Below, piece by piece: positions 6,924 through 55,001 of a stretch of 64,000 bases of DNA (positions are counted from its first letter, which is position 1; each line of letters begins with the position of its first letter). Below the pieces are notes generated by a model. The model worked only from the letters and a program-made list of their open reading frames with translations. It ran no database searches and was not told where the DNA came from. The DNA comes from a virus: IMG/VR virus record IMGVR_UViG_3300028840_006907, positions 64,001 through 128,000 of that record; one strand, given 5' to 3'. Both the position numbers and the translations under genes were made by a program.

Positions 6924-7682
6924 TTGGAGACATCTGTGAAGTATAGCGTACTTGTACCCTACTATAAACGCCTAGGGCACCTACATAATACCTTTATTTC
7001 CTTTCTACACCATTATTCAGATAGAAATGATTATGAGGTTGTCATAGCAGAAGATTATAAAAATGTCCAGAATAAAAAAGACCATGACGGTCTATCAGAA
7101 ACCATTGAGAAATTCCGTGAAAAAATACCGATAATTCATTTAACTCTTTCTATGGAAACCTGGAATCCAGCTCATGGTTTTAATGAAGCTGCAAAGTGGG
7201 CTTCTGGTGAATATTTCGTTGTAACCAATCCAGAATGTTTCCATCAAGTGAACATACTGGCTGGACTCGATAAAGAATTTGAAGAAGACCCCAATGTCTA
7301 TGTTGTATGTGGTTGTATGAATTATGTCCGTTGTAATTTTTTTATTAAAAACTTTAATGATCTAAATGGAAAATTTCAGAGATGGTACCAACACTCAATA
7401 CATAGAGCAGCCCACTATCATTTCTGTTCAGCTATTTCAAAACAGAATTGGGTAAAAATAGGAGGATTCGATGAAGACTTTGCTATGGGTATAGCCTATG
7501 ATGATGTCGATTTTAAATTAAGCATTCAAAAAGCCAAGATACCCTTTCATATCCGGGATGACCTTCTTACTATACATATTGACCATGGTTCCTTCCCATC
7601 TCCTCCAAATGCTCAGAAATTAGTTAATCGAAATAGAATCACCTATCAAAGAAAATGGGAAGGAAGTAATGAATCTTACTAG
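6924..7682 (+). CDS. putative glycosyltransferase-like protein
   Basis: 252-aa ORF with non-ATG start (TTG 6924 or GTG 6936); weak GT-A-like features only. Confidence 0.35.
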   Translation: METSVKYSVLVPYYKRLGHLHNTFISFLHHYSDRNDYEVVIAEDYKNVQNKKDHDGLSETIEKFREKIPIIHLTLSMETWNPAHGFNEAAKWASGEYFVVTNPECFHQVNILAGLDKEFEEDPNVYVVCGCMNYVRCNFFIKNFNDLNGKFQRWYQHSIHRAAHYHFCSAISKQNWVKIGGFDEDFAMGIAYDDVDFKLSIQKAKIPFHIRDDLLTIHIDHGSFPSPPNAQKLVNRNRITYQRKWEGSNESY

Positions 7683-9762
7683 TTATACCGCAGCCGACAG
7701 TATCCCGATAAAATTGATTAAGAACTTTAAATTGTTAAAGTCCATGACAACAAAAGGAGTCATCTTACCAATCCATGTCCAGTTCATACCCACAAATAGA
7801 TGTAACATGAAATGTGGATTTTGTAGCTGTGCTGAAGATGACAGAAAAACAGAAATGTCCCTTAAAAATGCTAAGAAGATCATCAGAAAATTAAAAAAAC
7901 TCGGTACTCAATCCGTAACCATCACCGGAGGAGGAGAACCACTCCTTTATCCTCATCTCCAAGAATTGTTTTCTCTGTTTAAAGATGCCGGGATAAAAAT
8001 CGGTTTTGTTACCAATGGCCTCTTATTAGGTAAATGTACCTATGAAGATGTAACCTGGTGTCGGATTTCTAATTCTGATGAAAGAAAAATGGACATGGAC
8101 TATTATCACACAATAGCTTATGCTGTTGAAGATAACCCAAACGTGGACTGGGCCTTTAGTCATGTCGTTTCTCCAAAACCAAATATCTCCGAAATAAAAC
8201 GGATCATAGAATTTGCCAATCTCCATGATTTTACCCATGTCCGATTAGTAGCTGATCTATTGAATTATAAAGAAGTAGATTTAATGCAGTTAAAAATCAC
8301 TCTTCGAGATGAAAATGTCGATGATGATAAAGTCATCTATCAAAGTAGAAATACCCCGCTCAGAGGCGGAGACTGTTATATATGCTATCTTAAACCCATG
8401 ATAGGGGCTGACTGTAATGTGTACGCTTGTTGTTTAGAGGCTAATGAACCTGTATTAATCCAGAGAAATAACGAAAGGATGTATTTATCTATAAAGGATG
8501 TTGTTCCAGGGGATTATGCTTGTGAATATGGAAAGATTTTAAATGTGTTTCATAAAGAGGGTGAAGAAGGCTTGGAAATAGTTTTGCAAAATAATAGGAC
8601 TATTTATGTTTCGAAAGATCATCTTATGCTTAAATTGACAAACCCTGAAATTAGACATAAGAGAAAGAAGTTATTATCTGACTATGAATTAGATACAATA
8701 GAATCTTCTGAATTAAGAATTGGAGATTTACTTCCGGTCAAATATAAATATGATATTAGTGAAATAAAAGAAGATACTATATCTGAAGAAGAAGCAGAAT
8801 TAATAGGATATTATGTAGCTGAAGGTTGGTCCAATGAACGAACTTGTATAGTTGATAAAAAATATCCTACTAGAACTACCACTATAGGATTTATGCTAGG
8901 GAAAGAGTCAAGAGAATATATAAGAAGATTTGAAGAAATTTGTGATATTTTGAATCTAAATTTTTCTATGACTGAACGTAGAACTGGTATGCAGTATCAG
9001 ATAGGTGCACATAAACCCTACGATGACTTAATTGTACACTGTGGTAATAAAGCAGAATTAAAAAAGATCCCTCCTTTTATTTTAAACGGCTCTGATAAAA
9101 TAAAGTGGAAATTTATTCAAGGCTATTTTGGAGGTGACGGGAATTTTCAAACTCCTTCTAAAAGCTATGATGGTTTTAAAATGAGAATGAGTACTGTCAG
9201 TAGACAACTAGCTAATGATATAATTTATCTCTTTTGTACTTTAAATATTCATGCTTCTATGAGAGTTGAGAGACGTGAAGGAAAAATGATAATAGAAGGA
9301 AGAGAGGTAAATGCTAAAGATCGGTATCATATAAATATAGGGGGAGCCTATAATTTAGAAAAAGCCCCATTCCTAAATGTAATTCAAACAAAAGAAAGAA
9401 GTCCTAAAAGAGCCCTCGGTTTTTTGAAAGATGAGGATAAGGGCATTATGTTTGTACCAGTTAAAGAGATCAGAGAGAAAAAGTTAGGAAAATTAGTAGA
9501 CATTCAAGTGGAAGGTTCAAATAAATTTATATCTTCATTTGGTATAATAGTTCATAATTGTGGCGTCCAGTATGCTCTTAAAAAGCCTTCAAAGAATCTT
9601 CCTAAGAAACTGAGCCTAGGAAGTGCTTTTGATCTTGAGAAGATAATTGAGAACAGTAATAAGCCCCTGGACGGGAGCATGTGTTATCGATGCTATTATA
9701 GTAATTATAACAAGATACTAGGATCCATCCTGGATGATACCGATCATATGGAGTTTGTATGA
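7669..9762 (+). CDS. radical SAM protein interrupted by an intein
   Basis: CNMKCGFC (CxxxCxxC) Fe-S motif near N-terminus; about 376-aa insertion with intein hallmarks. Confidence 0.7.
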   Translation: MNLTSYTAADSIPIKLIKNFKLLKSMTTKGVILPIHVQFIPTNRCNMKCGFCSCAEDDRKTEMSLKNAKKIIRKLKKLGTQSVTITGGGEPLLYPHLQELFSLFKDAGIKIGFVTNGLLLGKCTYEDVTWCRISNSDERKMDMDYYHTIAYAVEDNPNVDWAFSHVVSPKPNISEIKRIIEFANLHDFTHVRLVADLLNYKEVDLMQLKITLRDENVDDDKVIYQSRNTPLRGGDCYICYLKPMIGADCNVYACCLEANEPVLIQRNNERMYLSIKDVVPGDYACEYGKILNVFHKEGEEGLEIVLQNNRTIYVSKDHLMLKLTNPEIRHKRKKLLSDYELDTIESSELRIGDLLPVKYKYDISEIKEDTISEEEAELIGYYVAEGWSNERTCIVDKKYPTRTTTIGFMLGKESREYIRRFEEICDILNLNFSMTERRTGMQYQIGAHKPYDDLIVHCGNKAELKKIPPFILNGSDKIKWKFIQGYFGGDGNFQTPSKSYDGFKMRMSTVSRQLANDIIYLFCTLNIHASMRVERREGKMIIEGREVNAKDRYHINIGGAYNLEKAPFLNVIQTKERSPKRALGFLKDEDKGIMFVPVKEIREKKLGKLVDIQVEGSNKFISSFGIIVHNCGVQYALKKPSKNLPKKLSLGSAFDLEKIIENSNKPLDGSMCYRCYYSNYNKILGSILDDTDHMEFV
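8431..9558 (+). mobile_element. intein with LAGLIDADG-type homing endonuclease domain
   Basis: Starts with Cys (CLEANEP), block-B-like SKDH, LAGLIDADG-like LIGYYVAEGW and FIQGYFGGDGNF, ends IIVHN followed by Cys. Confidence 0.6.
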
Positions 9763-12019: not shown

Positions 12020-15018
12020 AGGGAAACCCCGCTCAGATGCAGGGAAGAAGATTTCATTAAGAAGTTTTAGGAAGAGCCCCGCAGAGGAGGAACCTCGCAA
12101 GATGCGGGGAAAAGGAACTTCAGGCAATTGGCTGGGATTAGCCCCGCGAAGGTGCGGGGAAAACAGTTTCCATGAACTATATTAGGGAGAGCCCCGTTGA
12201 CACGGGGAAAAACCCGTCTTTACTTAGTGAGATCGAGGAAGGAACAGCCCCGTTGATACGGGGATAAAATAATATGACTTTTACGAATCCTCTAGGGACA
12301 GCCCTGCAGAGTGCAGGGAAAAGTAACGTCTGGGAATTGTTTAGGATTAGCCCCGCGAAGGTGCGGGGAAAGCCATAGATTTTATATTGACACAGGAAAA
12401 ACCCCGGTATAGTCCGGGGAAAAGTACGTAATCAAGATGTAAGAGGATTAGACCCGGCGAGTCCGGGAAAAGATTGGCCCAATCACTATTAAGTAGGGTG
12501 GGATAGCCCCGCAGAATGCAGGGAATAGATGCCTCACTTCATACCACTGCGTCAACCCCAGTAGAGTCCGGGGAACATGAGTGTAAATCTCTGTCGTAGG
12601 TTCAACCCCGGAGAGATCCAGGGGAAATGGGTACAACTTTGTGTACAAGGGGTAGCCCCGGAGAAATCCGAGGAAAATGAGTGTAAATCTGTGTTGAGGG
12701 TCCAGCCCCGCTCAGTGCAGGGAATATTAAGGGTCAAAACCGGTTGCCCCTGCGTCAACCCCGGTGAAGTCCGGGGAACATGAGTGTAAATCTCTGTGGT
12801 AGGATCAACCCCGCAGAGTGCAGGGAAAAATTGAACTTTTTAATCAACCCTGTAACAGCCCCGGAGTCAGTTTTGACAAGTCCGGGGGAATATCACTTCG
12901 TAAAGGAGTGGCTGTCAAGGGGGCAACCCCACAGAGATGTGGGGGAAAGTAAGCCAACGTTCCGGCATAGGCATAGCCCCTGAATTTACAGAGGGCAATT
13001 TTTCCAGTGTCCAGAAGAAGATGCAGGGAGAACCCCGGAAAGTCCAGGGGAAAATGTGTCACAGAACAACTCTTTGTGATCTCCAGGGTGAACCTCGCAG
13101 AGGTGCGGGGGAAAAGTGTCAATGAATACCAGTATGAGTCAGCCCCGGTATAGCCCGGGAATAATTACTTCTAGTCTGATAGAAGGTGCAACCCCGGGAA
13201 GTCCGGGGAAATCGGTCATAGCCATCTGGACCAGGAAGAACCCCGGTGAGATCCGGGGAAAAGGACGTTTAAATCCTGACATAGTAGCTAACTGAGGCGT
13301 AGCTCCGGTCGGGTCAGCCCTGCAGAGAGCAGGGAACAAACATAGGTAATAAATCGGCACGTGACAGCCCCGCAGAGAGGCGGGGATATATAGCGTGAGT
13401 TGCAGGGTAAGGTTCAACCCTTGTTTACCAAGGGAAAAATACCGGCAGATAAGAATTTAGGATGACCCCCGGTGAAAGTCCGGGGAAAATAATTAATACG
13501 CAAAACAGCAGGGCCAGTCCCGCGAGATGCAGGGAATGTTCAGCCAGTTTGTGTAATATTTCAGGAGACGGTGGTGCAACCCTGTCAAGGACAGGGATAT
13601 GCAACATCTGTGGCTCTACGAGGATCAGCCCCGGCAAGTCCGGGGAATTATCTTTTTATAAATGCCAAAAATAACAGTTGGGAGGGGCCAATTCCGCTGA
13701 TGCAGAAAGACATTTCATAATTAATATATTTATGGAAGAGCCCCGGTGAAATCCGGGGAAGTCAAGTAATTACAGCTCGCTGACCACTGGGGGTAGCCCC
13801 GGTAAGATCCGGGGAAAAGTTTGTTTTGAAACAAACGCTAGGAACAGCCCCGCTCAGGTGCGGGAGAATCACTGCATATTTGGTTAATGGCCCCCCTGAG
13901 TCAATCCCGCTCAGGTGCGGGGAAAATAAAGAGATAGACTAATTCAATATGCAGGAAGAACCCCGCTATATGCAGGAAAATTTAAAAAGTATGGATATCT
14001 CCTTGAGTCAACCCCGGAGATCCAGGGAAATGTAGGCACTCGTTGTCCTTTGTCGAAGTGTGAAGGGCAAACCTCGTTGATACGAGGAACAAATTTAGTT
14101 TTACTTTTGAATAAAAGTGGTCAAGCCCCGCTCAGGTGCAGGGAATAGATAAGTATACCGACGATAGCCAGGACAGCACCTGTGGTTTAGCCCTGCATGT
14201 GCAGGGAATAGTTGAGTTGAAGATTGAAGAAAAAGATAAAGTAGGGTCAGCTCTGCATGTGCAGAGAATAGCCTTTCTTCAAGCGTTGACTTGGGAGTAG
14301 GTGGGGATCAGCCCTGCACATGCAGGGAATAGAATGGTGAATCAAATTCCATTTTGTCAAAGAACGGCGACAGCCCTGCCAGTGCAGGGAATATGATTTT
14401 AACGATGGTAAAATTGGGAAGGGGTCAGCCCTGCACATGCAGGGAATAGTCGCTAGTTCAAATCCAATCGCCCCGACAGGATCAGCCCTGCATACGCAGG
14501 GAATAGAAAATACTGACGATAAACTAGCGATATGGGATCAGCCCTGCATACGCAGGGATATAGCTTGACGAATGGCCGTTTTAATGCCAGGAGTAACCCC
14601 GCTGCGAGGAATAGTCATTTCAAATATATAGGTAAAGCCCCGCGAAAGAGCGGGGGTATAATATGGCGGATTTTGTTCTATTGGTGGAATCCGGGCCATC
14701 CCCGTAGATTGACACGGGGAGATCTTTTAGAAATCTACCAAGGTGCCTTTCCGGAGTCATCCCCGTATATACGGGGGAGATTTCAATTCAGGGAATTTCG
14801 GTACAAAATTGGTCGGTTTATCCCCGTATACACGGGGAATATTGTTTCAATAGGGCATAGCAGATCTAGGATCGGGGAATCCCCGCAGGGGCGGGGAACA
14901 TCTCGGATTTATTAATCAAATTCAAACGTTTTTCGGGGAATCCCCGCAGGGGCGGGGAACATTGTTTTAAGAGGTGGTAGTTACCTCGTAGGGGAATCCC
15001 CGCAGGGGCGGGGAACAT
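12020..15018 (-). CRISPR. CRISPR array 1: about 55 hairpin repeat units, three identical leader-proximal repeats, progressively divergent distal repeats
   Basis: Leader-proximal repeat (minus strand) ATGTTCCCCGCCCCTGCGGGGATTCCCC at 14874-14901, 14935-14962, 14991-15018 with 33- and 28-nt spacers; periodic CCCCGC/GCGGGG-type hairpins back to about 12020. Confidence 0.8.
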
Positions 15019-15127: not shown

Positions 15128-17359
15128 CTAGTGGATATACCGAATCCATTCATATCGAATTTTCATCGTTTTATAAGGAGCTTTTTTTCTCCCTGGAAAT
15201 ATGTTTCCTTCAAAAAGGAAAAATTTTTGAACAATTTTAAATTCAGCGTTTGATGGTGTCAAGCTCTGTGGTGCATAATCCGAACGCCAGTAATTATTAC
15301 AATATATAAATTTTTCTTCTCTGTCTTTTTGTATAAGGCCCGGAAACACCACTAAAACTATCTTTTCGTTTTCAATAACAATATCCCCTTGATAAATAGC
15401 TATTTCTAAATCCAGACCATCCTGCTCTATCACACGAGCATATTTCGAGAGTTTCCCATCAATCTTTACTTTAGCTTTAGGGGGAATATCAAAAGTTATC
15501 CATTCACCTTTTATGTCCTTAATGCTTTGAATAGGTTTTTTAACTGGAATTTCTTGAAAGACATGATCTTGGTATTCTGCTTTTTTAAGGATTTCTCCAT
15601 CTTTTTCCATATTAAGCAATAAAGCCTTTTCCATGATGTCTTTAAGTTCATAGAGATCTTTTTCAGTTAAGGGCTCTTTTGTTCCGAATACGATGGAACC
15701 TACATTCTCTAATCGAGCGATTTTATCAAAACCCTGTTTCCGGACAAAGTCTATGGTAATATGTTCTATTTTTCTATTTCTTGAAAGTCTTATGATTCTT
15801 ACAAATTCAGTTTTAATTGTGTCTTTGAAATTATCAAAACTTAAATGATCTTCTACGTAGGGATGATACAAATCCGCTATAAGACTTAATAAAATTTCTA
15901 TGTCTTCAGGTTTATCCTGTTTACGGTTGTAATCATAAGCTTTAATAATTTCTTGTCTCATTTCCATTAATATATCAGGAGCCATTATTTCACTTAAACT
16001 GGTAGATCCTTTTTTGTCCCGATAAAAGGGAGCTGTTGGAAGTAAGGGAATCCTGATAGCAGCACAAAGTTCTGACATTACAATTGAGGTTAAGAACAAA
16101 TTCAATCTGTCTGAATATAATGCCCTGATATTATTACGTTCTTCTTTTTTAATAGGTGGAACATAAATGTATAACCATATTTTATCTTTTTTAGGGTAAC
16201 ATCTGAAAATACGAAACATTATTTGAGAGAAGGTCACCTGACTCTTTCCATAACTTGTATTATGTAAAACAGCAGCAGGAGGCCAATCATACCCTTCATA
16301 GAATATTCTGCAAGATACGGCGACCCAGTATTTTTTATGATTACGTCTCAATAACTCTCTATTTTTTTTCTGAGTTTCCGGTGTGACTAAATCCAGTACT
16401 TTGGACGCAGGATATATTTCGTGAATAGCTTTTAAATATTTTTTAAGGGTTCCTTCCTCTCTGAACCGGTTCCCCATGTCAGGTAATATGACAATGTGTC
16501 TTTGATCTTTGTGCTCTTTCATATATCTAATGATCTGAGTAAGGGGATCTTTCCTATAGTGAGTGAAACGGAAATTGAATTCTTTGATTTTTATGATTGA
16601 GAGATAGTCATTTAATGGGATAACCCATTTTTCAAAATGATGTTTATAAGCATTGGGGACTATTTCTCCTCTGTCTGTGCGGTGGTAAGTAGCTGTATAA
16701 AAATTTACGTTACAAGTAGGTTCATGGATGGTACATACATCTCTGACAAAATCACCCAAATGAGTGGAATCTAGTGGGGTTGATTTTGAATGATGGCATT
16801 CATCTACATGTACAGTTAAATTTCTAAGGGCTTTCTTTTTTTCATAGTTGGTTAATTTTTCCCAGGTCATGACAAACCCTCTATGGGTAGCTGTAGCAAT
16901 AGGGCCTGTTATATGTTTTTCATTGTACGGGTATTTTCGAGGATCTGCTAAAAGGAATTCTTTAAGTCCTTTAATGGATTGAGGGTTTTCACTATTGAAT
17001 TTATGTTCTTTTGGTACTTCCCACAATCTTACCATACCTTTATATTTGATTTTTATTTGTCTATTTTGGGATCTGCAGAAATTTTCACCTATTTCTATTG
17101 TTGGTGCGATAAAGATATGTTTTCGAGTATTTTTAGATATTATGATTTCATCCAGGGATATGCATACTGCTAAAAAAGTTTTGCCGACTCCCCCTGGTGC
17201 ATCAAAGATCATGTATCTGAATTTTTTCCCATATTCTTTTGCATTGCATTGCCAGCCAGAGGGTATCATGATCCCTGATTCAAGTTTTTTATTATAGGTA
17301 CCAAGGTCAACCGGTTCTATTTTAATAGATTGCTGGAAAAGCGGTAATAGCTTTTTCAT
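15128..17359 (-). CDS. SF2 helicase, Cas3-like helicase module without HD nuclease domain
   Basis: Walker A DAPGGVGKT and DECHH box; in-frame stop 18 codons upstream excludes an N-terminal extension; no HD dipeptide. Confidence 0.6.
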   Translation of the reverse strand: MKKLLPLFQQSIKIEPVDLGTYNKKLESGIMIPSGWQCNAKEYGKKFRYMIFDAPGGVGKTFLAVCISLDEIIISKNTRKHIFIAPTIEIGENFCRSQNRQIKIKYKGMVRLWEVPKEHKFNSENPQSIKGLKEFLLADPRKYPYNEKHITGPIATATHRGFVMTWEKLTNYEKKKALRNLTVHVDECHHSKSTPLDSTHLGDFVRDVCTIHEPTCNVNFYTATYHRTDRGEIVPNAYKHHFEKWVIPLNDYLSIIKIKEFNFRFTHYRKDPLTQIIRYMKEHKDQRHIVILPDMGNRFREEGTLKKYLKAIHEIYPASKVLDLVTPETQKKNRELLRRNHKKYWVAVSCRIFYEGYDWPPAAVLHNTSYGKSQVTFSQIMFRIFRCYPKKDKIWLYIYVPPIKKEERNNIRALYSDRLNLFLTSIVMSELCAAIRIPLLPTAPFYRDKKGSTSLSEIMAPDILMEMRQEIIKAYDYNRKQDKPEDIEILLSLIADLYHPYVEDHLSFDNFKDTIKTEFVRIIRLSRNRKIEHITIDFVRKQGFDKIARLENVGSIVFGTKEPLTEKDLYELKDIMEKALLLNMEKDGEILKKAEYQDHVFQEIPVKKPIQSIKDIKGEWITFDIPPKAKVKIDGKLSKYARVIEQDGLDLEIAIYQGDIVIENEKIVLVVFPGLIQKDREEKFIYCNNYWRSDYAPQSLTPSNAEFKIVQKFFLFEGNIFPGRKKAPYKTMKIRYEWIRYIH

Positions 17360-17382
17360 TGTCTTTTTCCTCTCAAATAAGT

Positions 17383-17412
17383 CCTGGAAAGCCTTTTCAG
17401 GGGCTTTCCAGG
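17383..17412 (-). other. 11-bp stem-loop between micro-ORF and helicase gene
   Basis: CCTGGAAAGCC / GGCTTTCCAGG inverted repeat with 8-nt loop, about 25 nt upstream of helicase ATG. Confidence 0.4.
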
Positions 17413-17444
17413 ATTAATGTACTGTGTATTCTATATCAACACTT

Positions 17445-17600
17445 TCAATCGTTTTTATCAATCTCCGTGGCTAATACCGACATAAATGACATTCCGGTTC
17501 CTCCTGGTAATTCAATAATAGAAGGTCTTTTGATGTTCTCTTCTAAATTCCTAGAAGCGAGTTGCCAAGAATAGGCTTTTATAGTTTTTGTATTATTCAT
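17445..17600 (-). CDS. micro-ORF (51 aa) between cas6e and helicase
   Basis: GGAGAT 8 nt upstream of ATG at 17600; no known motif. Confidence 0.25.
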   Translation of the reverse strand: MNNTKTIKAYSWQLASRNLEENIKRPSIIELPGGTGMSFMSVLATEIDKND

Positions 17601-17628: not shown

Positions 17629-18273
17629 TTAATAAGATTTATACGGTGCAATAAGCATCATACCACATCCGAAACCTTTACTCTTACCAATTCCATTATA
17701 AATAGTATTCACAAAAAGATTTTTATTGACTACCTGAAGGACTCCTCGTAAATCAATACTGAAAAAAGATACAACTTTACCATCTTTTTTTTTGAATTTA
17801 CAGAATTGAAAAGATTGAACGGAATGCTTTTGAATCATATTTTTAAAACCGTAACTTTGGCCACGTTTCTGAAGCCAATTCTTTGAGGATTCGTGAGCAA
17901 TGAAATTCCAATTATAGGGTTCATCAAGAACTTTCATTTCATTTGCCAGATCCGTCATGATTGAAACCTTTTTCCTGGTTTTCAATTTACAAACTTCGGC
18001 ATTGAGTCTGAGATCGTATTGAAGAAATATTCCAGATTTTAAATTATTTAAATCGAATACTTTTGTTTGTGTAGTGTATTCGTCCTCTGGAGGATTTGGT
18101 TTCTTTTTTGATATGATATAAAGTTCACCATTATAGAGATAATAAAGGAAATCTCTTACCCTGTTAGATCTTTGATCACCAAAAAATTCCCAGACTTTTT
18201 GATGAAGCTCATATATACCTTCGGTGGGAGAATATCTTCTCAAGCTGTCACTGTAAATTTTACTCAGAAACAT
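17629..18273 (-). CDS. cas6e: Cas6e (CasE) endoribonuclease
   Basis: Start set at internal Met (GGAGG RBS); MFLSKIY N-terminus and C-terminal GIGKSKGFGCGMM resemble E. coli CasE. Confidence 0.75.
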   Translation of the reverse strand: MFLSKIYSDSLRRYSPTEGIYELHQKVWEFFGDQRSNRVRDFLYYLYNGELYIISKKKPNPPEDEYTTQTKVFDLNNLKSGIFLQYDLRLNAEVCKLKTRKKVSIMTDLANEMKVLDEPYNWNFIAHESSKNWLQKRGQSYGFKNMIQKHSVQSFQFCKFKKKDGKVVSFFSIDLRGVLQVVNKNLFVNTIYNGIGKSKGFGCGMMLIAPYKSY

Positions 18274-18910
18274 TCGATACCTCCTTCCATCCCATATACT
18301 CAATTCGGGATCGGTATTGTTTGGGACCGGTTACCTGATCAAAACGTTGATTGCTTTTTACTATTTTGATACTGGTATCGGTACCTTCCCAAAATATTCG
18401 GTTCTTTTCACGCCCTTTAAGACTACCATTAAGAAATTCAGGAAGAGAGTACTGTTCAAACGCCTCTGAGAGGCTCTCAGCCTTAACGATCTTAGGATCG
18501 GGTGGTATGTCATAGGAACAGCATTTCCTTCCAAGAAAGGGGGTATAGATGGGCCTATTAAGGGCTTCCATTATTTTCTTCAAAGTATAGGGACAGTTTT
18601 CATTCTCCCATATACATACGGTAAAGATGGCATTGACTAGGTAAAATCTATTCGAGACAATTCCTGGTCCGACTCTGACAATATGGAAATCTTTTAGAAT
18701 AGTACCAGGATTATCTTCCCTACAGGCAAATCCTAGTTGGGCAATCTGAGTTAATTCTTTCACCATTTCTCTTGAGACTCCAAGAGAAGCAGCGATTAAC
18801 CCGCTTACGCCAGATTTGGTAGGGTGATCATCTGTCTTTCGGGTATTACCCTGAAGGGGGAGACCCCAGGCGGATAGAGTACCCGAAAGAAGGAATAATA
18901 AATAATTCAT
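18260..18910 (-). CDS. cas5e: Cas5e (CasD)
   Basis: MNYLLFLLSGTLSAWG and YTPFLGRK resemble E. coli CasD MRSYLILRLAGPMQAWG and YTPYLGRR. Confidence 0.8.
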   Translation of the reverse strand: MNYLLFLLSGTLSAWGLPLQGNTRKTDDHPTKSGVSGLIAASLGVSREMVKELTQIAQLGFACREDNPGTILKDFHIVRVGPGIVSNRFYLVNAIFTVCIWENENCPYTLKKIMEALNRPIYTPFLGRKCCSYDIPPDPKIVKAESLSEAFEQYSLPEFLNGSLKGREKNRIFWEGTDTSIKIVKSNQRFDQVTGPKQYRSRIEYMGWKEVSNVSE

Positions 18911-18933: not shown

Positions 18934-20019
18934 TTAGAAATCGATGAATTTAATAAGTTCGTTAAGTGATCCTTCTTTTGTGAGTACATTCAAGATCCTA
19001 TAATCCATTTCATGGTAACATGAATCAAAACTACTTTTCATGTCAAGAAGGGCTTTGACAGCATTTTCCATAACCGCAGGACCTTTAATAGGAGTATGGA
19101 AGGCTTGACAGAGACTTCGTGGGGCAGTTGGAGCTTTTTCGATCATAACGAATGCTGGCCATGTTTGACTATCAGCACATCTGTTTTTATTAGCTGAGGG
19201 GGATGAAGTGGTTAATACTTCGACTATCTGTCGGATGGTTTTGATAGCTAGTTCTTTATTACCTTGAAGATTTTTCGTTAAGAGCTTGGAATTGATTACA
19301 AAGAAACTATAATAGACACCCTGGGTAAAATAGAAATTATCTAGGTGACCTGAACCTTTGGTTCCTTCTAATCCAAGGTTATCGGTAGCTGTAAAATAGT
19401 CGGTTTGGACAGATCCTATATCATTGACAGTAAAAGCGAAATTTGAGGACAGTGAAGCTTCAACATCATATTGGGGCAGTTTTGCAATCATGCGACCGGT
19501 AAGGGCTGTTCTGATTCCTGTATTTTCTTTTAAAAAGAAGAATTCTTGATCAGTGGGTTTATGCCCCTCAATAATTTTGTCAATCAGTTCTTCAATATGT
19601 TGTCTTTCGCTCGGTTGAATTTTAATGGTTTCGGTTTTAAGAAGATCAACCTTTTTTTTCTTTTTCTTTGTATTTTTATCATCTTCTTTTTCAGTGTGCT
19701 TTTTGATATCAACAAAAGTACCAATAAATTTAAATGCGTATTCTTCAGCTTTTTTAGGTGATATTCCACCATCAATTAATCTTTTCTCGACATATTTTCC
19801 AATAAGAGGAGTCTGAAGACCTATATCGATTTCGCACCTTTCAAATAGAGCCTTGTTTAAATCATATTTTCGATTTTGTGAAGACGAATAACCTCGGTTG
19901 GTATCATTAAGTTTCATTGTTTTAGGACGTCCGTCCTGGCCTCGGTTTATGCTAGATACAGCTACACCAGTGAGAAGGTGAATTAACCAGTAGGGGTCTT
20001 TAATAATAGTTTTAGACAT
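18934..20019 (-). CDS. cas7e: Cas7e (CasC) backbone subunit
   Basis: 361 aa; N-terminal SSINRGQDG...SSQ pattern like Cas7e SxLNRDD...SSQ. Confidence 0.75.
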   Translation of the reverse strand: MSKTIIKDPYWLIHLLTGVAVSSINRGQDGRPKTMKLNDTNRGYSSSQNRKYDLNKALFERCEIDIGLQTPLIGKYVEKRLIDGGISPKKAEEYAFKFIGTFVDIKKHTEKEDDKNTKKKKKKVDLLKTETIKIQPSERQHIEELIDKIIEGHKPTDQEFFFLKENTGIRTALTGRMIAKLPQYDVEASLSSNFAFTVNDIGSVQTDYFTATDNLGLEGTKGSGHLDNFYFTQGVYYSFFVINSKLLTKNLQGNKELAIKTIRQIVEVLTTSSPSANKNRCADSQTWPAFVMIEKAPTAPRSLCQAFHTPIKGPAVMENAVKALLDMKSSFDSCYHEMDYRILNVLTKEGSLNELIKFIDF

Positions 20020-20045: not shown

Positions 20046-21989
20046 TTATATGTTATTTGAATATTCTCTTTCCCAGTAGAACTTGACATCTTTGCTCCAG
20101 TGGGCATACCCTTCCATGAAACTGATGATGTTAAATCCTTCCATTCGAGAAACAACATCAGCAAATACTTTCCAGTTTTTTTGTATATCCGTTTTATTGA
20201 AACTCATCATTTCGTCAACATGTCGGCGGTTAATTTTTTGAGAACCCATTTGGGCACCGAAAGATTGAGAAAAATCCAGATCCTTAGCTTTAAAAACAAT
20301 TAGTAGAAGAGGTACGAAAAGAGTCTTCATATCTTCTGATCTTAAAGCAGGGAAATGCATAGACATTTCTAAAATAAAATTCAAATAAAGGTCTTCATGT
20401 TTTAAGATATCGATGTCAAAACATCGGGTAAATACCCTATGTTTTTCTGTATTTCTAATAGTCCCGTACCAGGACAGGAATGGTTTGGTAAAGACCTGGT
20501 TAAAATGAGGTAGGTTTAATTTCCTGTATTCGATATGGGCGAAATTCTCATATTCTAATGGTTGTAGTTTAAGAGGTTTAACAACTTTTTTATTTAAGGT
20601 TTCGATAAATTGTTCCTTAAAATATTTCTGTAAACCTCTCTTTTCAGTACCTACATTTTTTTCAAATGTATCGAAAGCTTTAACTACCATCTTTTCCAAC
20701 CATTTTTCGATATTATGATTCTTGAGAACTTCATAGAAGTATTCTTCAGTTTCTGTCAGAAATTCGTGAAATATTAAAGGTTCGGTTTTATCAGTTCCCC
20801 AGAACTTTCTTATATAATTACAGGTATACCATCCTATAAGATATGAGTGTTCTCTGATATTTAAAGTAAACGCACTATCTTTATAGAGTTCTTCTGGGAT
20901 ATCGAATTTATTTTCCTCCCATCCAAAGAGTTTGGCTTTAGCCATATTATAACCGAAAGTCCATAATCCGAAATCAGTTATTCCAAGATATTCTCGGTTC
21001 TCCATGAAATGACTCACCACTAAAGCTGGAGTTAATTTTTTAGCTGGTAGTAGATAGGTCACAAGATCGAGATGGCTGGTAAAGTCCAGGGGTTTCCGGA
21101 AACCTGTTTCTTTGCCTTTTATAATGGGTGAAAGGATATGACGTGGTTTGACATAACAGTTACCATAATTCCTCGTTTTTATCTTTCTAACCATTAATTT
21201 GGAATGATTGCCACAGATAGTACATGATTCATCAAATTTATCAAAGATAAGATGAATACGTAGAGGCATTTCCCAGAGCGGGTAATAAGGATTCATCTCA
21301 TCCAGGGAAACAGTAGCTTTGTTTTTACTATCAACGGTATCACTAAGCCATGGGAGTGTTACACCTTTTGGATTTCCTCCGAATTCAAACATGGTCTTTT
21401 TAATAATAACATTAGACCATATTGTTTCCCATAACGTGGAACCGGTAATAATAGTGGTAAGAGAACCATTGGCACCGGCTGTTATCGAAGTACGGTATCC
21501 TTGGCCTCCCATAATGGCACTGAGTTGATTAAGATAAAGGGCAATTGTAGCACAGGATTGGCAAAAAGTATGTATCTTTGCTTTTTGGAAGAAATCTTTA
21601 CCAGCTTTAATTGTCGCTGTCCCTGGAGTATCAAAGAGGAGATTACCAACATTTACGATTCTTTCAAGGTCCTGTGGCCGTTTATCCTGTAAAAAACGAG
21701 GACCTTTGCCATCTAGTTCAAAGAGTTTTGGTTTAAGTTTTTCTAGGATGGCTTTTTGGTTTGGTGCTTTTTTGAATAGTTTTTTCCATTCTTTCTTACT
21801 TGTAGGAGCAAGATAAGTGTTGAAAAAACCTATGAGAAGCCGTACACCTACAGCATTGAAATCGGGTCTACCGAAATCGAGAGCTATTATAGGGTTATTA
21901 GGTTTTGAAGTTATTTTGTAGGGTGGAATGTTTTCCCTGGTACCGTCTTTTCGGATGACGGGGATCCAAGGGTCCTTAATTACATTCAT
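20046..21989 (-). CDS. cas8e: Cas8e (Cse1) large subunit with about 145-aa C-terminal extension
   Basis: MNVIKDPWIPV and CQSCATIALY match Cse1 DNWIPV and CGGCTAIALF; GGAGGT RBS. Confidence 0.8.
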   Translation of the reverse strand: MNVIKDPWIPVIRKDGTRENIPPYKITSKPNNPIIALDFGRPDFNAVGVRLLIGFFNTYLAPTSKKEWKKLFKKAPNQKAILEKLKPKLFELDGKGPRFLQDKRPQDLERIVNVGNLLFDTPGTATIKAGKDFFQKAKIHTFCQSCATIALYLNQLSAIMGGQGYRTSITAGANGSLTTIITGSTLWETIWSNVIIKKTMFEFGGNPKGVTLPWLSDTVDSKNKATVSLDEMNPYYPLWEMPLRIHLIFDKFDESCTICGNHSKLMVRKIKTRNYGNCYVKPRHILSPIIKGKETGFRKPLDFTSHLDLVTYLLPAKKLTPALVVSHFMENREYLGITDFGLWTFGYNMAKAKLFGWEENKFDIPEELYKDSAFTLNIREHSYLIGWYTCNYIRKFWGTDKTEPLIFHEFLTETEEYFYEVLKNHNIEKWLEKMVVKAFDTFEKNVGTEKRGLQKYFKEQFIETLNKKVVKPLKLQPLEYENFAHIEYRKLNLPHFNQVFTKPFLSWYGTIRNTEKHRVFTRCFDIDILKHEDLYLNFILEMSMHFPALRSEDMKTLFVPLLLIVFKAKDLDFSQSFGAQMGSQKINRRHVDEMMSFNKTDIQKNWKVFADVVSRMEGFNIISFMEGYAHWSKDVKFYWEREYSNNI

Positions 21990-22264: not shown

Positions 22265-22586
22265 GACAGCCCCGGTAAAGTCCAGGGAAATAAAAATTAG
22301 TGATAATTCGGGAATCAGCAGGAGGAGAGCATCAGCCCTGCGTATGCGGGGAATAGTGTTATCGTCTTACAGGATGTAAAGCAGAGACAGCCCCGCGTAT
22401 GCGGGGAATAGAAATTAATACATCTCATAAAATCTAGCATCAGCCCCGCGTATGCGGGGAATAGTTATTTATCTATACTTCCTACAACTCCCATAACGCA
22501 TCAGCCCCGCGTATGCGGGGAATAGCTCGTTGGTTTTCCCATTCCACAAAAGTTCAACGCATCAGCCCCGCGTATGCGGGGAATAG
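22265..22586 (-). CRISPR. CRISPR array 2: five 28-bp repeats plus a degenerate terminal repeat, four spacers
   Basis: Repeat (minus strand) CTATTCCCCGCATACGCGGGGCTGATGC at 22329, 22384, 22437, 22498, 22559; spacers 27, 25, 33, 33 nt. Confidence 0.85.
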
Positions 22587-27032: not shown

Positions 27033-27322
27033 AATGCCTTCTTTCTTCTTTTTCGTCTATGTTCTAAAAGTATTTTTCCCATTTCATAATTTGTGATTTC
27101 TTTGGCACCCATTTCAATAGCTCTTTTTCTTCGGCTTTCTACCAAATCGAAATGAATAAAACCGGTTCTACTTTTTTGTATCCAGTTTTTTTTCATTCCA
27201 ATCTTTTCTGCAAATTCGAGTAATTCTTTAATACTAATATCAGAAAACATGTGACAGTTTTTCACATATCTTCCACGAAGTTTCCAAAGGTTATCTTTTA
27301 ATTCATCTACATATATTGTCAT
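27029..27322 (-). CDS. hypothetical protein (DUF4031-like?)
   Basis: 97 aa; YVDEL...CHM...HFDL pattern, recalled family only. Confidence 0.3.
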   Translation of the reverse strand: MTIYVDELKDNLWKLRGRYVKNCHMFSDISIKELLEFAEKIGMKKNWIQKSRTGFIHFDLVESRRKRAIEMGAKEITNYEMGKILLEHRRKRRKKAL

Positions 27323-27849
27323 GGTAATGTTAATCCGAATTTGTCAAAAATTCCTATGATTGCTTCAGCATTACCCATAGCATCATCTAGTGGATTATGG
27401 GTATGTTTTGTTTTTCGAAACTTCTTTTTCCAGTTCCTTTGAGCGTTGAATTTTTTTACAAGCCCACTATATAGATCCCCGATTCTCCTGGCACTATGTC
27501 CAAAAGGATTGTTATTACAAAAATGCCATAGATAATAATTTATGAATTGCCAGTCGAAAACGGGGTTATCCGAAATGAATACAATTCCTTGTTCTTTTTC
27601 ATTTATATTTTTTAACCATTGGTGAAATTTTTCTATTACTTTTTTGGGTGGAGGGAATTTTTTAACTTCTTTATATGAGAATCCTGAGACAACTAGAGCT
27701 GATTCGATAAATTTATTTGTTATAGGGCGTAATTGACTATAAAAAGTCCTGTTTAATTCTGGCTCTACAACTACCGCTCCGAAACAGACCATGGAATAAT
27801 CGCCGGGGCATGGACCGTCAGCTTCAATATCTACTGAGATAAGTTTCAT
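27319..27849 (-). CDS. putative 3'-5' exonuclease (DEDD-like)
   Basis: N-terminal VDIEADGP motif. Confidence 0.45.
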   Translation of the reverse strand: MKLISVDIEADGPCPGDYSMVCFGAVVVEPELNRTFYSQLRPITNKFIESALVVSGFSYKEVKKFPPPKKVIEKFHQWLKNINEKEQGIVFISDNPVFDWQFINYYLWHFCNNNPFGHSARRIGDLYSGLVKKFNAQRNWKKKFRKTKHTHNPLDDAMGNAEAIIGIFDKFGLTLP

Positions 27850-31316: not shown

Positions 31317-32270
31317 TTATTCCTTAAAATAAAATTTAGATTTTAAATTATCGTAAGCACTCCAATTACCTTCAATAATACGATTAGTATATATAGTACT
31401 TAGATTGTATTCAGAGTCGATTATATCAGCTTTAGATAAAAGTATAGCTTCAGGAGTCATCGGGACTACTGCAGCCCCTAAATCCAGAGAACCGTGATGA
31501 CTTAATATTAAATGACCTAATATTTTTTTCATTCGGTTTCTTTCTTCCGGAGGAGCTTCTAATGCGTTTATGATTGGTATAATATTAGTATAACTTAAAT
31601 TGAGATGACTATGCAATCGTCCTATATCAGTCATTTCAATAGTCAAGTCATATGTATAGGAAAACATTTTTCCGTGATCATGAAGAAAAGCTCCCATGCA
31701 AATGATAGAAGGATCTATTGGATAAATATAACAGAAAGAGGAACAGATCTTCGTTACACATAAAGTATGCTCTAATAGACCGTGTAGATAAGCGTGATGG
31801 ACGTTACCCTTTCCTCCAGGGCACATTTTAAATTTATGCACAAATGTTTCATTATTTTTAAATTTATCCCAGAGATCTCTCATATATTTATTTTTAACTT
31901 TATCATCCATTATTTGAACTAGTTCAACCCACATTTCATCGGGATCATGTGGTGAAGTAGGAAGGAAATCTACAGGATTATAAGGATTTGTTTCTTCAAT
32001 TGAAGATACAATGATTTGATTCTGACCTTGATATACATTAACTTTCCCTTGAATACGACAAACTTTAGCATTTTTAACTATTTCGTAATAAGTATCTGCA
32101 TGATTGAAAGCGGTTGCTGCTATCTGTCCTTTTTTATCTCTCAACTCAAAAGTTAGAAAATTACCTTTTGAAGCGTTTTTGAATGGTCTTAGTGAAGCGT
32201 CTGCTATAACGAAGATTCCATCTATATCTGTTCCACTACTCAATGTTAATATATCTGCTGTGTTTACCAT
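31317..32270 (-). CDS. OB-fold plus HD-domain nuclease (YhaM-like)
   Basis: HHAYLHGLLEHT and FLHDHGK HD-domain motifs after an OB-fold-like N-terminus. Confidence 0.55.
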   Translation of the reverse strand: MVNTADILTLSSGTDIDGIFVIADASLRPFKNASKGNFLTFELRDKKGQIAATAFNHADTYYEIVKNAKVCRIQGKVNVYQGQNQIIVSSIEETNPYNPVDFLPTSPHDPDEMWVELVQIMDDKVKNKYMRDLWDKFKNNETFVHKFKMCPGGKGNVHHAYLHGLLEHTLCVTKICSSFCYIYPIDPSIICMGAFLHDHGKMFSYTYDLTIEMTDIGRLHSHLNLSYTNIIPIINALEAPPEERNRMKKILGHLILSHHGSLDLGAAVVPMTPEAILLSKADIIDSEYNLSTIYTNRIIEGNWSAYDNLKSKFYFKE

Positions 32271-34425: not shown

Positions 34426-34502
34426 TGGTACCCCAATCAGGACTCTAACCTGAAATCTTTGGCTCCGGAAACCAACGCTTTATACAATTAAGCTATTGGG
34501 GC
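34426..34502 (-). tRNA. tRNA-Arg (anticodon CCG), CCA encoded
   Basis: Hand-folded cloverleaf: GCCCCAA/TTGGGGT acceptor, loop TTCCGGA, atypical T-loop. Confidence 0.5.
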
Positions 34503-34511
34503 ATTATAAGA

Positions 34512-34586
34512 TGGCGGTGCGTAAGGGAATCGAACCCTTGCCAGGAGATCGACAGTCTCCGGTCCTAACCACTGAACGAACGCACC
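34512..34586 (-). tRNA. tRNA-Asp (anticodon GTC), CCA encoded
   Basis: GGTGCGT/ACGCACC acceptor, loop CTGTCGA, T-arm GGTTCGATTCC. Confidence 0.7.
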
Positions 34587-34595
34587 GTATTTTTA

Positions 34596-34760
34596 TTAAT
34601 CAATTTTTTTATTTCCGATAAAAAGACCGCAGTCGCATTGCCGAGCCATTTTCGTTTTATTCTTTATTACAATGCCTATTGCTTTAATAGGCTTTTTACA
34701 AGTGTTGCAAATATTTTGCTGTGTCTTTTTGTCATGCTGTTTCACTGCTGTTTTAGCCAT
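34596..34760 (-). CDS. micro zinc-ribbon protein (54 aa)
   Basis: Hand-translated MAKTAVKQHDKK...CNTCKK...CDCG; AAGGAG RBS. Confidence 0.35.
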   Translation of the reverse strand: MAKTAVKQHDKKTQQNICNTCKKPIKAIGIVIKNKTKMARQCDCGLFIGNKKID

Positions 34761-34782
34761 TACTTGTACTCCTTAAATGTTA

Positions 34783-34856
34783 TGGCAGGGACGGTCAGAT
34801 TCGAACTGACATCGCCGGTTTTGGAGACCGGGTGCTTGACCGTTAGCGACGCCCCT
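34783..34856 (-). tRNA. tRNA-Trp (anticodon CCA), CCA encoded
   Basis: Loop CTCCAAA, T-arm GTCAG TTCGAAT CTGAC. Confidence 0.65.
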
Positions 34857-34871
34857 GTATTGACAAATTTT

Positions 34872-35045
34872 TCATGATTTGAACCATTCACTACAACCTT
34901 CGGCTAGTTCTAATAAATGAACACAAGGTTTTGTTTCTTTTGCCAGAACACAGCCACACACTGTACAAATTACCACAGCAGGTTTCAAATCATGTTTCTC
35001 AATTTCAGCGAATGCTTTCACTATATCATTCACTATATCATTCAT
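34872..35045 (-). CDS. micro Cys-rich protein (57 aa)
   Basis: Hand-translated MNDIVNDIVKAF...CTVCGC... Confidence 0.3.
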   Translation of the reverse strand: MNDIVNDIVKAFAEIEKHDLKPAVVICTVCGCVLAKETKPCVHLLELAEGCSEWFKS

Positions 35046-35062
35046 TTTTTCTCCGAATTATC

Positions 35063-35135
35063 TGGGCGCAGACGGACTTGAACCGCCCACGAATGGCTTA
35101 TGAGACCACTACTCTACCGACTGAGTTATACGCCC
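35063..35135 (-). tRNA. tRNA-Met (anticodon CAT)
   Basis: GGGCGTA acceptor, loop CTCATAA, T-loop TTCAAGT; no CCA. Confidence 0.65.
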
Positions 35136-35143
35136 TTGACTTA

Positions 35144-35221
35144 TGGCACACCCGGCACGATTTGAACGTGCGACTTCTTCGTTCGTGGCGAAGATCTCTA
35201 TCCGGACTGAGTTACGGGTGC
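35144..35221 (-). tRNA. tRNA-Arg (anticodon ACG), CCA encoded
   Basis: Loop CCACGAA, T-arm CACG TTCAAAT CGTG. Confidence 0.6.
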
Positions 35222-35227
35222 GTATTT

Positions 35228-35728
35228 TTATAAAAAAGTTTTATACGTTTTTTTATTAATGATATATGATAATGTTGATTTTGCTGATTTATATTCCTTT
35301 GCTAATTTATTTAAACTTTCTCCATTTTTATTTCTGTTAATTATAGATTCTATCTCTTTTTTTGTGAATTTTCTTAATTTATACGCAGCTTTAACTGCTT
35401 GCTCTTTTCTTTCTTTTTCAGGTATATCAAATGAATTCTCTGATCTTGTACCAATTGATATATTAGAATCATTGAAATTTAATCTATTTCTATCTAAGTG
35501 TCTAGTCTCAATCCCTTCTTCAAAAACTTTATCCCCAAATAAAAAGTATGCTTTTAATTTATGTACTTTTAAATTTTTAATCTTTTTGTTTACATAGATA
35601 TTTATGGTAGGGTAACCTTTTGAATAATGGAATCTTAAAGGTTTTCCCATTGGCCCAATAACTTCATTTTTATCATTAAAATGATATCCTTTTTTTACAG
35701 CTATTTTTAAGACATCATTATTTTTCAT
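35228..35728 (-). CDS. HNH-family homing endonuclease
   Basis: Phage HNH-like GYHFNDKNEVIGPMGKPLRFH block and C-terminal helix-turn-helix; sits inside the tRNA cluster. Confidence 0.5.
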   Translation of the reverse strand: MKNNDVLKIAVKKGYHFNDKNEVIGPMGKPLRFHYSKGYPTINIYVNKKIKNLKVHKLKAYFLFGDKVFEEGIETRHLDRNRLNFNDSNISIGTRSENSFDIPEKERKEQAVKAAYKLRKFTKKEIESIINRNKNGESLNKLAKEYKSAKSTLSYIINKKTYKTFL

Positions 35729-35748
35729 ATATTAATTTTTCTTTCTAA

Positions 35749-35821
35749 TAGGGGTACGGGGAGTCGAACCCCGGTCGTGGGAGAGAAAATCCCATATCCT
35801 AAGCCATTAGAAGATACCCCC
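35749..35821 (-). tRNA. tRNA, anticodon probably TTC (Glu), atypical position 37
   Basis: GGGGGTA acceptor, T-arm CGGGG TTCGACT CCCCG, loop TTTTCTC. Confidence 0.5.
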
Positions 35822-35866
35822 ATAAAATAAAAAAGCTCCTGTCTGGTTCTCACCCGACAGGAGCTT
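35822..35866 (-). terminator. rho-independent terminator-like hairpin
   Basis: 10-bp stem AGCTCCTGTC/GACAGGAGCT followed on the minus strand by TTTTTTATTTT. Confidence 0.55.
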
Positions 35867-47872: not shown

Positions 47873-48282
47873 TGGAGGTGAGGAGAGTTGAACTCCTGTC
47901 CGCGAAGGTATCTTGAGTAAACCTCTACATGTTTAGTCTATGGTTTAAATCTTATTCATAATCACGTTCACAGACAAACTTAATTAAGAACCAGTCTCTA
48001 GTCTCATTCATTGGTCAAGACTCCTCAATGAACCAGAACCCGTTTGGCTATCCGGAATTAACAGGGTTCAGTTAAAACCGGATTTGTCGTTTTTTGTTTA
48101 AACGACGGCTTCTTCTGCTTGATGAATAGCAGCAAGGTTAAGTGCTGAAAACATCGCACAGAAGTTAACTGTATTAGTTTTTTCAGTTATTATTGAAATC
48201 GGCTTTTTTACGAGGCCAACCGATTAACCTCGACATGCAGTTTACATTTCAACTCATCACGTCGAAAACCAAGTACACCCCC
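47873..48282 (-). ncRNA. ssrA: tmRNA (SsrA)
   Basis: Minus strand starts GGGGGUGUACUUGGUUUUCGACG, has GCAUGUCGAGG...GGUUGGCCUCGUAAAAAAGCCG, ends GGACAGGAGUUCAACUCUCCUCACCUCCA; 620-bp ORF-free gap. Confidence 0.65.
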
Positions 48283-53593: not shown

Positions 53594-53757
53594 ATACAAA
53601 TAGCAAATGAAATTTAAATTAAAGAAGGAAAAATGACTTCAATAAATCTAAGCGCAATTATAAAAACAGCGGGAGCCACCGGGACAACAGTCGTAGTGGG
53701 TACGGCAGGAGTATTGCCTTAGAGGAAGTCTATATTATATATAAAGTCAAAGAAAAA

Positions 53758-53794: not shown

Positions 53795-53868
53795 GCCGGA
53801 ATAGCTCAGTTGGCCAGAGCGGTTGATTTGTAATCAATTCGTCGGGGGTTCGAATCCCTCTTTCGGCT
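53795..53868 (+). tRNA. tRNA-Thr (anticodon TGT)
   Basis: GCCGGAA/TTTCGGC acceptor, loop TTTGTAA, T-arm GGGGG TTCGAAT CCCTC. Confidence 0.65.
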
Positions 53869-53934
53869 TGTAAATTTATTTGGAAAGGAGATGACATGAT
53901 GGCGAAAGTGTGATACTTAAACAAAGGAGCCGTT

Positions 53935-54234: not shown

Positions 54235-54294
54235 GCCTGGTGGTCTGGCAGGTCTCATAAGCCTGCAACTCAAGTTCAATTCTTGGCCCCGCAA
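54222..54294 (+). tRNA. tRNA with CAT anticodon (Met or Ile2)
   Basis: TGCGGGG/CCCCGCA acceptor, loop CTCATAA, T-loop TTCAATT. Confidence 0.5.
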
Positions 54295-54314
54295 ATGCAT
54301 ATAAAGGGGAAATA

Positions 54315-54683: not shown

Positions 54684-54689
54684 AAATGG

Positions 54690-54994: not shown

Positions 54995-55001
54995 AATTTA
55001 T

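Follow-up and report, generated by a model that had tools for sequence, protein, structure and literature searches.

Class 1 CRISPR systems that combine a targeting complex with a helicase and no nuclease are known mostly from the type IV systems that plasmids carry, and their mechanism is only now emerging. In type IV-A, where the Csf effectors are accompanied by CasDinG, interference needs the ATPase activity of CasDinG. Type IV-A systems take part in conflicts between mobile elements (PMC11519345; bioRxiv 10.1101/2023.06.23.546257). Here we analyze a 743-aa superfamily 2 (SF2) helicase or translocase of the DECH-box kind, encoded on the minus strand at positions 15128..17359 of a 64,000-nt stretch of viral DNA (positions 64,001 to 128,000 of the IMG/VR record IMGVR_UViG_3300028840_006907; hereafter, the window), directly behind the genes of a type I-E Cascade. 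This protein is very probably a dedicated CRISPR-associated helicase that is not Cas3 and carries no nuclease of its own. With somewhat less assurance, we favor the idea that it is a motor that fills the Cas3 slot of a phage I-E Cascade and was captured from a family of phage helicases.

Like type IV-A, the window locus comprises a class 1 CRISPR RNA (crRNA) complex on a mobile element, has no cas1, cas2, cas3 or nuclease, and includes an SF2 helicase. It differs in that this helicase does not have the XPD/DinG-type core and in that the effectors are those of I-E, not Csf. Judged by analogy, type IV-A with CasDinG would be the closest functional counterpart of the helicase-Cascade system. The closest published precedent is a type I-C variant of huge phages, which has a “helicase protein instead of Cas3” and no Cas1, Cas2 or Cas3 (PMC7162821). 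That variant is I-C-like, with Cas5d-type processing and no Cas6, whereas the window is I-E-like with Cas6e, and the two helicases are compared here by description only. With the canonical I-E system of Escherichia coli K-12 the window shares the four Cascade families, repeats of 29 nt whose stem is CCCCGC, spacers of 32 nt and the order casA-casC-casD-casE, but it lacks cas3, cas1, cas2 and a separate cas11 (casB), and its helicase gene comes after cas6e whereas E. coli cas3 precedes casA. The I-E2 and I-F4 HNH-Cascade variants are also type I derivatives devoid of Cas3 (PMC12669027, PMC10910872). They cut precisely by means of an HNH nuclease fused to Cas5 or Cas8, whereas the window system adds a motor without nuclease, and searches with profile libraries found no HNH domain in its Cas5e or Cas8e. 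The 2025 classification includes I-E2 (Cas5-HNH), I-E3 (Cas11-nuclease) and I-E5 (transposon-associated) and nothing like the window system, and a 2023 survey of rare CRISPR systems makes no mention of an I-E Cascade with a non-Cas3 helicase. We found no description of such a system in our literature search, which did not cover a 2022 Cell paper on virus-encoded systems. The combination is a rare and apparently undescribed class 1 arrangement, an earlier description being possible.

The helicase open reading frame (ORF) is intact and starts with ATG. The initial annotation of this DNA, made from the sequence alone, had reported a Walker A motif about 55 residues from the N-terminus, a DECHH box, no HD dipeptide and an upstream in-frame stop that leaves no room for a missed N-terminal extension. 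A script recovered all of these features: the Walker A motif DAPGGVGKT occupies residues 53-61 (with the lysine at K60), the motif II DECHH residues 186-190, there is no HD dipeptide in all 743 residues, and the ATG is preceded by an in-frame stop, 19 codons upstream, 18 sense codons lying in between. Only ~30 residues precede the first RecA-like domain (RecA1, ~30-250), which is followed by RecA2 (~270-435), a helical region (~455-600) and a beta-rich C-terminal domain (~610-743), an architecture also visible in the AlphaFold model (predicted local distance difference test, pLDDT, of 66.9). The protein is a member of SF2, with two RecA-like domains and the motifs I (GxGKT), II (DExH), III (TAT) and VI (QxxxRxxR), all of them invariant across nine aligned Cascade-linked homologues (K60, D186, E187, H189, T222-A223-T224, Q379, R383 and R386). 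It may unwind or translocate on nucleic acids at the expense of ATP. The sole Pfam families that it matches, ResIII (8.9e-7; 29.4 bits against a cut-off of 22.5) and DEAD (1e-4), are both generic.

Comparison with Cas3 provided very little. Both the TIGR01587 cas3_core model, whose cut-off is 102.45 bits, and the PADLOC Cas3 model gave a score of 13.8 bits, and the weak matches to the Cas3 core (E 0.006-0.02) cover only residues 50-191. In an hhalign comparison of the helicase family with E. coli Cas3, 39 columns could be aligned, spanning motifs II-III only, with a probability of 79%. A search of the PDB with the family profile retrieved no Cas3 chain up to E=10, none of the PDB fold matches of the helicase model was a Cas3, and no HD or Cas3_HD domain was detected at E<=1 in Pfam or NCBIfam. 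We therefore rejected an identification as Cas3, since the protein lacks both the HD domain and the Cas3 core signature. We also rejected DinG/CasDinG (Csf4), whose XPD/DinG-type SF2 core (Pfam DEAD_2 and Helicase_C_2, with arch/accessory domains) is missing. The comparison of profiles and structures that the initial annotation had proposed places the protein neither in the Cas3 core nor in DinG/Csf4. By sequence, the best PDB match of the family profile was the RecA2 domain of an archaeal XPB (6e-5), followed by MDA5/RIG-I; by fold, the closest structures were Hef, LGP2/RIG-I, HsdR, a type ISP enzyme, XPB and Rad54. SF2 enzymes of the Hef, RIG-I-like, HsdR, XPB and Rad54 types mostly track along duplex nucleic acid. 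The DECHH motif II and these matches place the helicase among mostly duplex-tracking SF2 enzymes, although by resemblance only: it is just 11-16% identical to Hef/FANCM, RIG-I-like proteins, type I/III restriction motors and XPB, with no Pfam family beyond ResIII and DEAD.

The absence of a nuclease extends to the C-terminal part of the protein, where the initial annotation had envisaged that a divergent HD or other nuclease fold might be concealed; we looked for one and found none. Neither a nuclease fold nor a set of catalytic residues was detected in the C-terminal 300 residues, and no solved structure matches the helical region or the beta-rich C-terminal domain. Between residues 440 and 743, the positions invariant in the nine Cascade-linked homologues are R540, F544, D545, G554, G559, T560, L572, W620, F623, V643, Y656, W691, P702, I734 and W738, that is, a single acidic residue and no histidine. 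This constitutes good, if not absolute, evidence that the helicase has no detectable nuclease. Elsewhere in the window, a protein with an OB-fold and an HD domain (31317..32270, minus strand) lies 9 kb upstream of cas8e and was considered as a trans-acting Cas3''. We discarded this possibility, as it is a YhaM-like 3'-5' exonuclease (NCBIfam, 111.9 bits, versus 14-17 bits for Cas3-HD models), and no such protein is found near the Cascade-helicase system in any related locus. A DEDD-type 3'-5' exonuclease (27319..27849, minus strand) is encoded ~5 kb upstream of cas8e; it matches two models, ‘Effector exonuclease’ of PADLOC at 2.6e-39 and one for CRISPR-associated DEDDh proteins at 8.9e-8.

The genes next to the helicase encode a type I-E Cascade (Cas8e, Cas7e, Cas5e and Cas6e, together with I-E type repeats). 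They were assigned with Pfam, NCBIfam and PADLOC hidden Markov models, with E-values from 1e-26 to 1e-55, and run on the minus strand in the order cas8e-cas7e-cas5e-cas6e, then helicase, then CRISPR array; the helicase is thus co-directional with cas6e, as initially annotated. Cas6e, the crRNA endonuclease (17629..18303), scored 118.8 bits with TIGR01907 (cut-off 45.2) and 6e-32 with PF08798; Cas5e (18260..18910) scored 122.8 bits with TIGR01868 (cut-off 68.95). Cas7e (18934..20019) is strongly recognized by Pfam (PF09344, 1e-52) and PADLOC and falls slightly under the NCBIfam cut-off (TIGR01869, 155.9 bits, cut-off 178). Cas8e (647 aa, 20046..21989) matches PF09481 over residues 2-375 (4.6e-48), TIGR02547 (116 bits) and the E. 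coli CasA structure over residues 1-356 (2.9e-10). It is ~150 aa longer than usual, its Cse1 homology stopping near residue 375. No separate cas11/cse2 gene was found in the window locus or in related loci, the cas8e orthologue of one relative (L028; we number related loci in this way) has a faint Pfam Cse2 match, and an hhalign comparison of the Cas8e C-terminus with E. coli CasB was negative. Cas8e may be a Cas8e-Cas11 fusion, or Cas11 may be produced by internal translation. All four effector proteins have their best matches among I-E models, and none among the type IV effectors Csf1, Csf2 and Csf3; Cas6e has a weak secondary match to type IV Cas6 models (4.5e-7 versus 1e-34). A scan of the other 37 window ORFs that reach 130 aa, a length that leaves out ORFs of Cas2 size, detected neither cas1 nor cas3, and the related loci examined contain no cas1, cas2 or cas3.

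The association between the helicase and Cascade is not peculiar to the window. An exhaustive profile search retrieved ~1180 representatives of the helicase family at E<=0.001 (437 of them below 1e-30), exclusively from metagenomes and phages. Eight family proteins were present in a database of 5.8 billion proteins, the same eight being recovered with the nine-sequence alignment, and no relative was found in 185,579 bacterial and archaeal species genomes, which hence offer no clue about the host. All 11 near members with a readable context (P0001-P0007, P0010, P0011, P0012 and P0016; >430 bits, from 100% to ~30% identity) are encoded directly after cas8e-cas7e-cas5e-cas6e, without cas1, cas2 or cas3. 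In these loci the genes often overlap by 1-4 nt and a CRISPR array follows the helicase wherever the contig continues. The arrangement is not a product of chance, as 11 metagenomic lineages independent of one another share this gene order between phage flanks that are not the same. By contrast, the more distant family members (<=28% identity) come from viral contigs of 33-467 kb that carry no I-E cas genes, including that of a cultured jumbo phage, Tunturiibacter phage Tunturi_5, where the gene lies beside DNA ligase and other helicase genes. In a neighbor-joining tree of the helicase core of 162 family members, built without support values, all 11 linked members fall within one clade of 22, from which the 15 known unlinked members are all absent. 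This clade comprises ~22 clusters at 50% identity, all of them on phage-like contigs, and agrees with the idea that an I-E Cascade locus captured a phage helicase once. The beta-rich C-terminal domain is strongly conserved in the closest linked members only and is weak or undetectable in distant ones.

These results bear on the two options that the initial annotation had left: either a Cas3 helicase deprived of its nuclease, or the recruitment to Cascade of a helicase of unrelated origin. The latter option gains support, given that deeper branches of the family occur in large phages without cas genes and that the Cascade-linked members form one clade; the former is rejected on the 13.8-bit score, the 39 aligned columns and the lack of any Cas3 among PDB matches. 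The converse outcome, a helicase family foreign to CRISPR whose relatives show no such linkage, is not what we observed either, Cascade being adjacent in every close relative examined.

Most linked loci contain an additional gene that the window has lost. In seven of them (L002:9396-10004, L003:9399-10004, L006:770-1396, L007:9405-10004, L028:8726-9364, L029:4343-4945 and L031:5101-5748), cas6e is followed by a gene for a protein of ~200 aa, which we call the partner, and then by the helicase, whose start the partner gene often overlaps by a few bases. Homologues of this protein (23-42% identity) are also encoded near unlinked helicases in ten viral contigs, adjoining the helicase in nine (L011, L012, L014-L017, L019, L020 and L024) and ~4 kb upstream of it in the other (L013). 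The presence of the partner beside both linked and unlinked helicases indicates that the two form an ancestral module. Seven partner residues are invariant (K14, Y40, E54, Q68, D113, N143 and M193), but it matches no Pfam, PHROG, NCBI-named or PDB family, and the search of 5.8 billion proteins yielded unnamed proteins only. A lone match at E=0.47 and a reading of the alignment hinted at a Rossmann/methyltransferase-like strand pattern, which we do not claim. In L002:12289-12618, L003:12307-12639, L006:3705-4022 and L007:12274-12606, the helicase is followed by a ~110-aa protein with two tandem helix-turn-helix-like repeats of ~50 aa, and in unlinked members of the family a longer repeat protein either comes after the helicase or is fused to it (L004 p328 and Tunturi_5 gp99/gp98; Pfam HA / INT_rpt). 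Both the partner and the ~110-aa gene are absent from the window, L001 and L005, and L026/L027 have kept only a 32-aa remnant of the partner. Its disappearance from the clade of the window, L001 and L005 and also from L026 implies at least two losses.

In the window, the 270 nt that separate cas6e from the helicase hold a 51-aa ORF (17445..17600, minus strand) at the place where relatives carry the partner gene. This ORF resembles the helicase N-terminus around motif I (ELPGGTGMSF versus DAPGGVGKTF; pairwise BLASTP E=0.001), with Met replacing the Walker lysine, and is probably the remnant of a duplication or of a lost gene. A terminator-like hairpin of 12 bp (17382..17413, minus strand) lies between it and the helicase start codon.

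Two CRISPR arrays flank this set of genes. Array-1 (12150..15018, minus strand) begins, as the initial annotation had anticipated, directly after the helicase: a leader of ~110 nt separates the helicase stop codon (15128) from the first repeat, ATGTTCCCCGCCCCTGCGGGGATTCCCC[T/G], which starts at 15018. The first repeats (ATGTTCCCCGCCCCTGCGGGGATTCCCCG) are 29 nt long and of the I-E kind, with spacers of 27-33 nt. After three to five such regular, leader-proximal units come ~30 or more with differing hairpin stems (CCCCGC, CCCTGC, CCCCGG, CCCCGT, CCCGC and others, all of which still pair perfectly) and a period of 48-62 nt; these units have variable 3' handles, with periods falling to 48-56 nt, a make-up that is very unusual. 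Handles vary both within and between arrays, and some array-1 repeats end as in E. coli (CGGGGATAAACCG). Array-2 (22326..22586, minus strand), upstream of cas8e, consists of five repeats CTATTCCCCGCATACGCGGGGCTGATGCG. The best sigma-70-like match, TTGACA-17-TAAAAT (15234..15262, minus strand), identified by its consensus alone, falls within the 3' portion of the helicase gene, some 215 nt ahead of where array-1 has its first repeat; such matches are as numerous here as in shuffled sequences, and we regard it as a candidate promoter of array-1. Among relatives, L005 carries a heterogeneous array of more than 40 units similar to array-1, whereas the arrays of L026 (12 units) and L029 (22 units) are regular, with a 61-nt period.

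A possible target was found for one of these relatives. A spacer of L005 (L005:5333-5364) matches the helicase gene of L001 (L001:1663-1694) at 30 of 32 nt (BLAST E 9e-8), with AAA as the three bases on the 5' side of the protospacer, and does not match the helicase gene of L005 itself. As the spacer is in the mRNA sense, its crRNA could pair with the template DNA strand and not with the transcript, pointing to DNA as the target. This single match suggests DNA targeting in competition between related phages, and that phages equipped with this helicase-Cascade system may target each other's copy of it. Another similarity, between L026:13813-13849 and positions 53695-53731 of the window (37 nt, 89% identical), was not retained as a spacer match. 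It lies at the far end of the L026 array region, its counterpart in the window is intergenic, upstream of a tRNA-Thr gene, and its appearance is that of conserved non-coding DNA, not of a spacer.

If the helicase indeed acts in the place of Cas3, interference could proceed as follows. Cas6e would process the transcripts of both arrays, and Cascade would find a DNA target flanked by a protospacer adjacent motif and open an R-loop. The helicase would be recruited to the R-loop complex, possibly via its clade-specific beta-rich C-terminal domain, and translocate on the target DNA using ATP. Having no nuclease, it might interfere by blocking or stripping RNA polymerase or replication proteins or, alternatively, hand the unwound DNA to a nuclease encoded elsewhere; the targets would probably be competing phages. 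We put forward motor-dependent interference without a nuclease as a possible mode of action, about as likely as not or slightly less. More tentatively, the system may represent a form of type I-E not described before and found in giant phages only, whose Cascade, in place of Cas3, directs a duplex translocase of the DECH-box kind that it has captured. Most members of such a variant would include the partner and the double helix-turn-helix protein. Its interference would be nuclease-free, the motor blocking transcription or replication of rival phages, or would depend on a new chemistry that the partner provides; in both cases, the type IV strategy would have been reinvented independently, starting from type I.

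Several observations weigh against this scenario. The recruitment of the helicase by Cascade and its mode of interference are argued from analogy. The structure models are moderate (pLDDT 67-70, built from 7-8 sequences), so that a very divergent nuclease fold is possible, and Cas3 may be supplied in trans, from the rest of the 469-kb genome or by the host. The window's own spacers provided neither a self-match in the window nor a target in IMG/VR, queried with a single exact pattern and with three others in which every sixth position was N. In addition, the hairpin divides the helicase from the Cascade genes, the partner that most linked relatives keep is missing, and most of array-1 has heterogeneous repeats and shortened spacers; together, these three features could mean that the window copy is decaying or reduced. 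Against decay, however, none of the five genes is disrupted, the ATPase motifs have been conserved and an identical protein occurs on six contigs.

Among the other explanations, the one that merits most attention, though we consider it unlikely, is that the phage Cascade relies on the I-E Cas3 (and Cas1-Cas2) of its host for cleavage and spacer uptake, the helicase being a mere accessory that, for instance, helps R-loop formation, removes bound Cascade or aids spacer capture. Complementation by the host has been proposed for phage systems without interference genes by Al-Shayeb et al. 2020 (PMC7162821), a precedent for this idea. The E. coli-type end of some array-1 repeats marks the system as a close I-E derivative, and the relatives with long regular arrays (22 units in L029 and 12 in L026) have no cas1 or cas2, so that their spacers must have been acquired in trans. 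Yet the place of the helicase in the operon is the same in 11 of 11 lineages and its ATPase motifs have been kept, which fits a core component; repeat handles that differ within and between arrays fit poorly with a single host system; and the helicase has no relative in the bacterial and archaeal species genomes. A still less probable alternative makes the partner the key element. The helicase and the partner, perhaps with the ~110-aa double helix-turn-helix protein, would act as a motor plus an enzyme that cleaves or modifies the target, and the window copy, deprived of the partner, would be a reduced or defective derivative. The recurrence of the partner in seven linked loci and near unlinked helicases in ten contigs, its seven invariant residues and even the 32-aa remnant in L026/L027 speak for its importance, but an enzymatic role is a guess for a protein that matches no known family, and its loss on two or more occasions with Cascade, helicase and arrays intact suggests that it is dispensable.

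The helicase could also be an ordinary phage replication or recombination enzyme that happens to lie beside Cascade, in which case the CRISPR locus would be a pure DNA binder. Distant family members do reside among DNA-metabolism genes, as with the ligase and helicases of Tunturi_5, and a hairpin stands between cas6e and the helicase in the window. We find this improbable nonetheless, since the gene order is kept across 11 lineages down to ~30% identity despite their different phage flanks, the genes overlap in relatives, the linked members are monophyletic, and the array always comes after the helicase, which is thus located inside the CRISPR-cas locus. Least credible of all is a highly diverged Cas3' helicase deprived of its HD domain. 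It would account for the position of the gene beside the Cascade operon and for the weak Cas3-core matches at residues 50-191, but the score is far under the cut-off, hhalign aligns motifs II-III only, no Cas3 appears among PDB sequence or fold matches, and the nearest relatives outside the linked clade are phage helicases accompanied by the ~200-aa partner and without cas genes. We regard this interpretation as effectively refuted.

The window comes from a very large (giant) phage. Its contig measures at least 469 kb, and the identical helicase protein is found on contigs of 388-470 kb; six contigs with this protein were read from the JGI and Logan sample sets. Within the window there are 22 tRNA genes in three clusters and a transfer-messenger RNA with the tag peptide EKTNTVNFCAMFSALNLAAIHQAEEAVV (34426-35822, 47873-48282, 53795-55328 and 60768-63431), a content typical of very large phages. 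A 697-aa radical SAM protein (7669-9762, plus strand), for whose identical gene the Pfam matches include weak ones to intein-splicing and LAGLIDADG, possibly contains an intein. Its gene belongs to a cluster that also encodes a glycosyltransferase, a methyltransferase, a sulfotransferase and a 1514-aa protein without family match.

Returning to the helicase-Cascade system, a captured motor in the Cas3 slot would mean that the I-E Cascade, of all Cascades the one understood best, has independently given up Cas3 in favor of a phage motor unrelated to it, in a combination that has persisted and diversified. It would offer a second tractable model for RNA-guided, motor-dependent interference and would inform on how Cascade recruits its effectors, as Cas8e would have to recognize a completely different partner. 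The conserved ~200-aa protein is a candidate source of some new activity that would be linked to a motor guided by RNA, and a compact Cascade with a non-cutting translocase may be of interest for the programmable blockade of transcription or replication. For the phages themselves, the match between the L005 spacer and the L001 helicase gene suggests that these systems are weapons in phage-against-phage competition.

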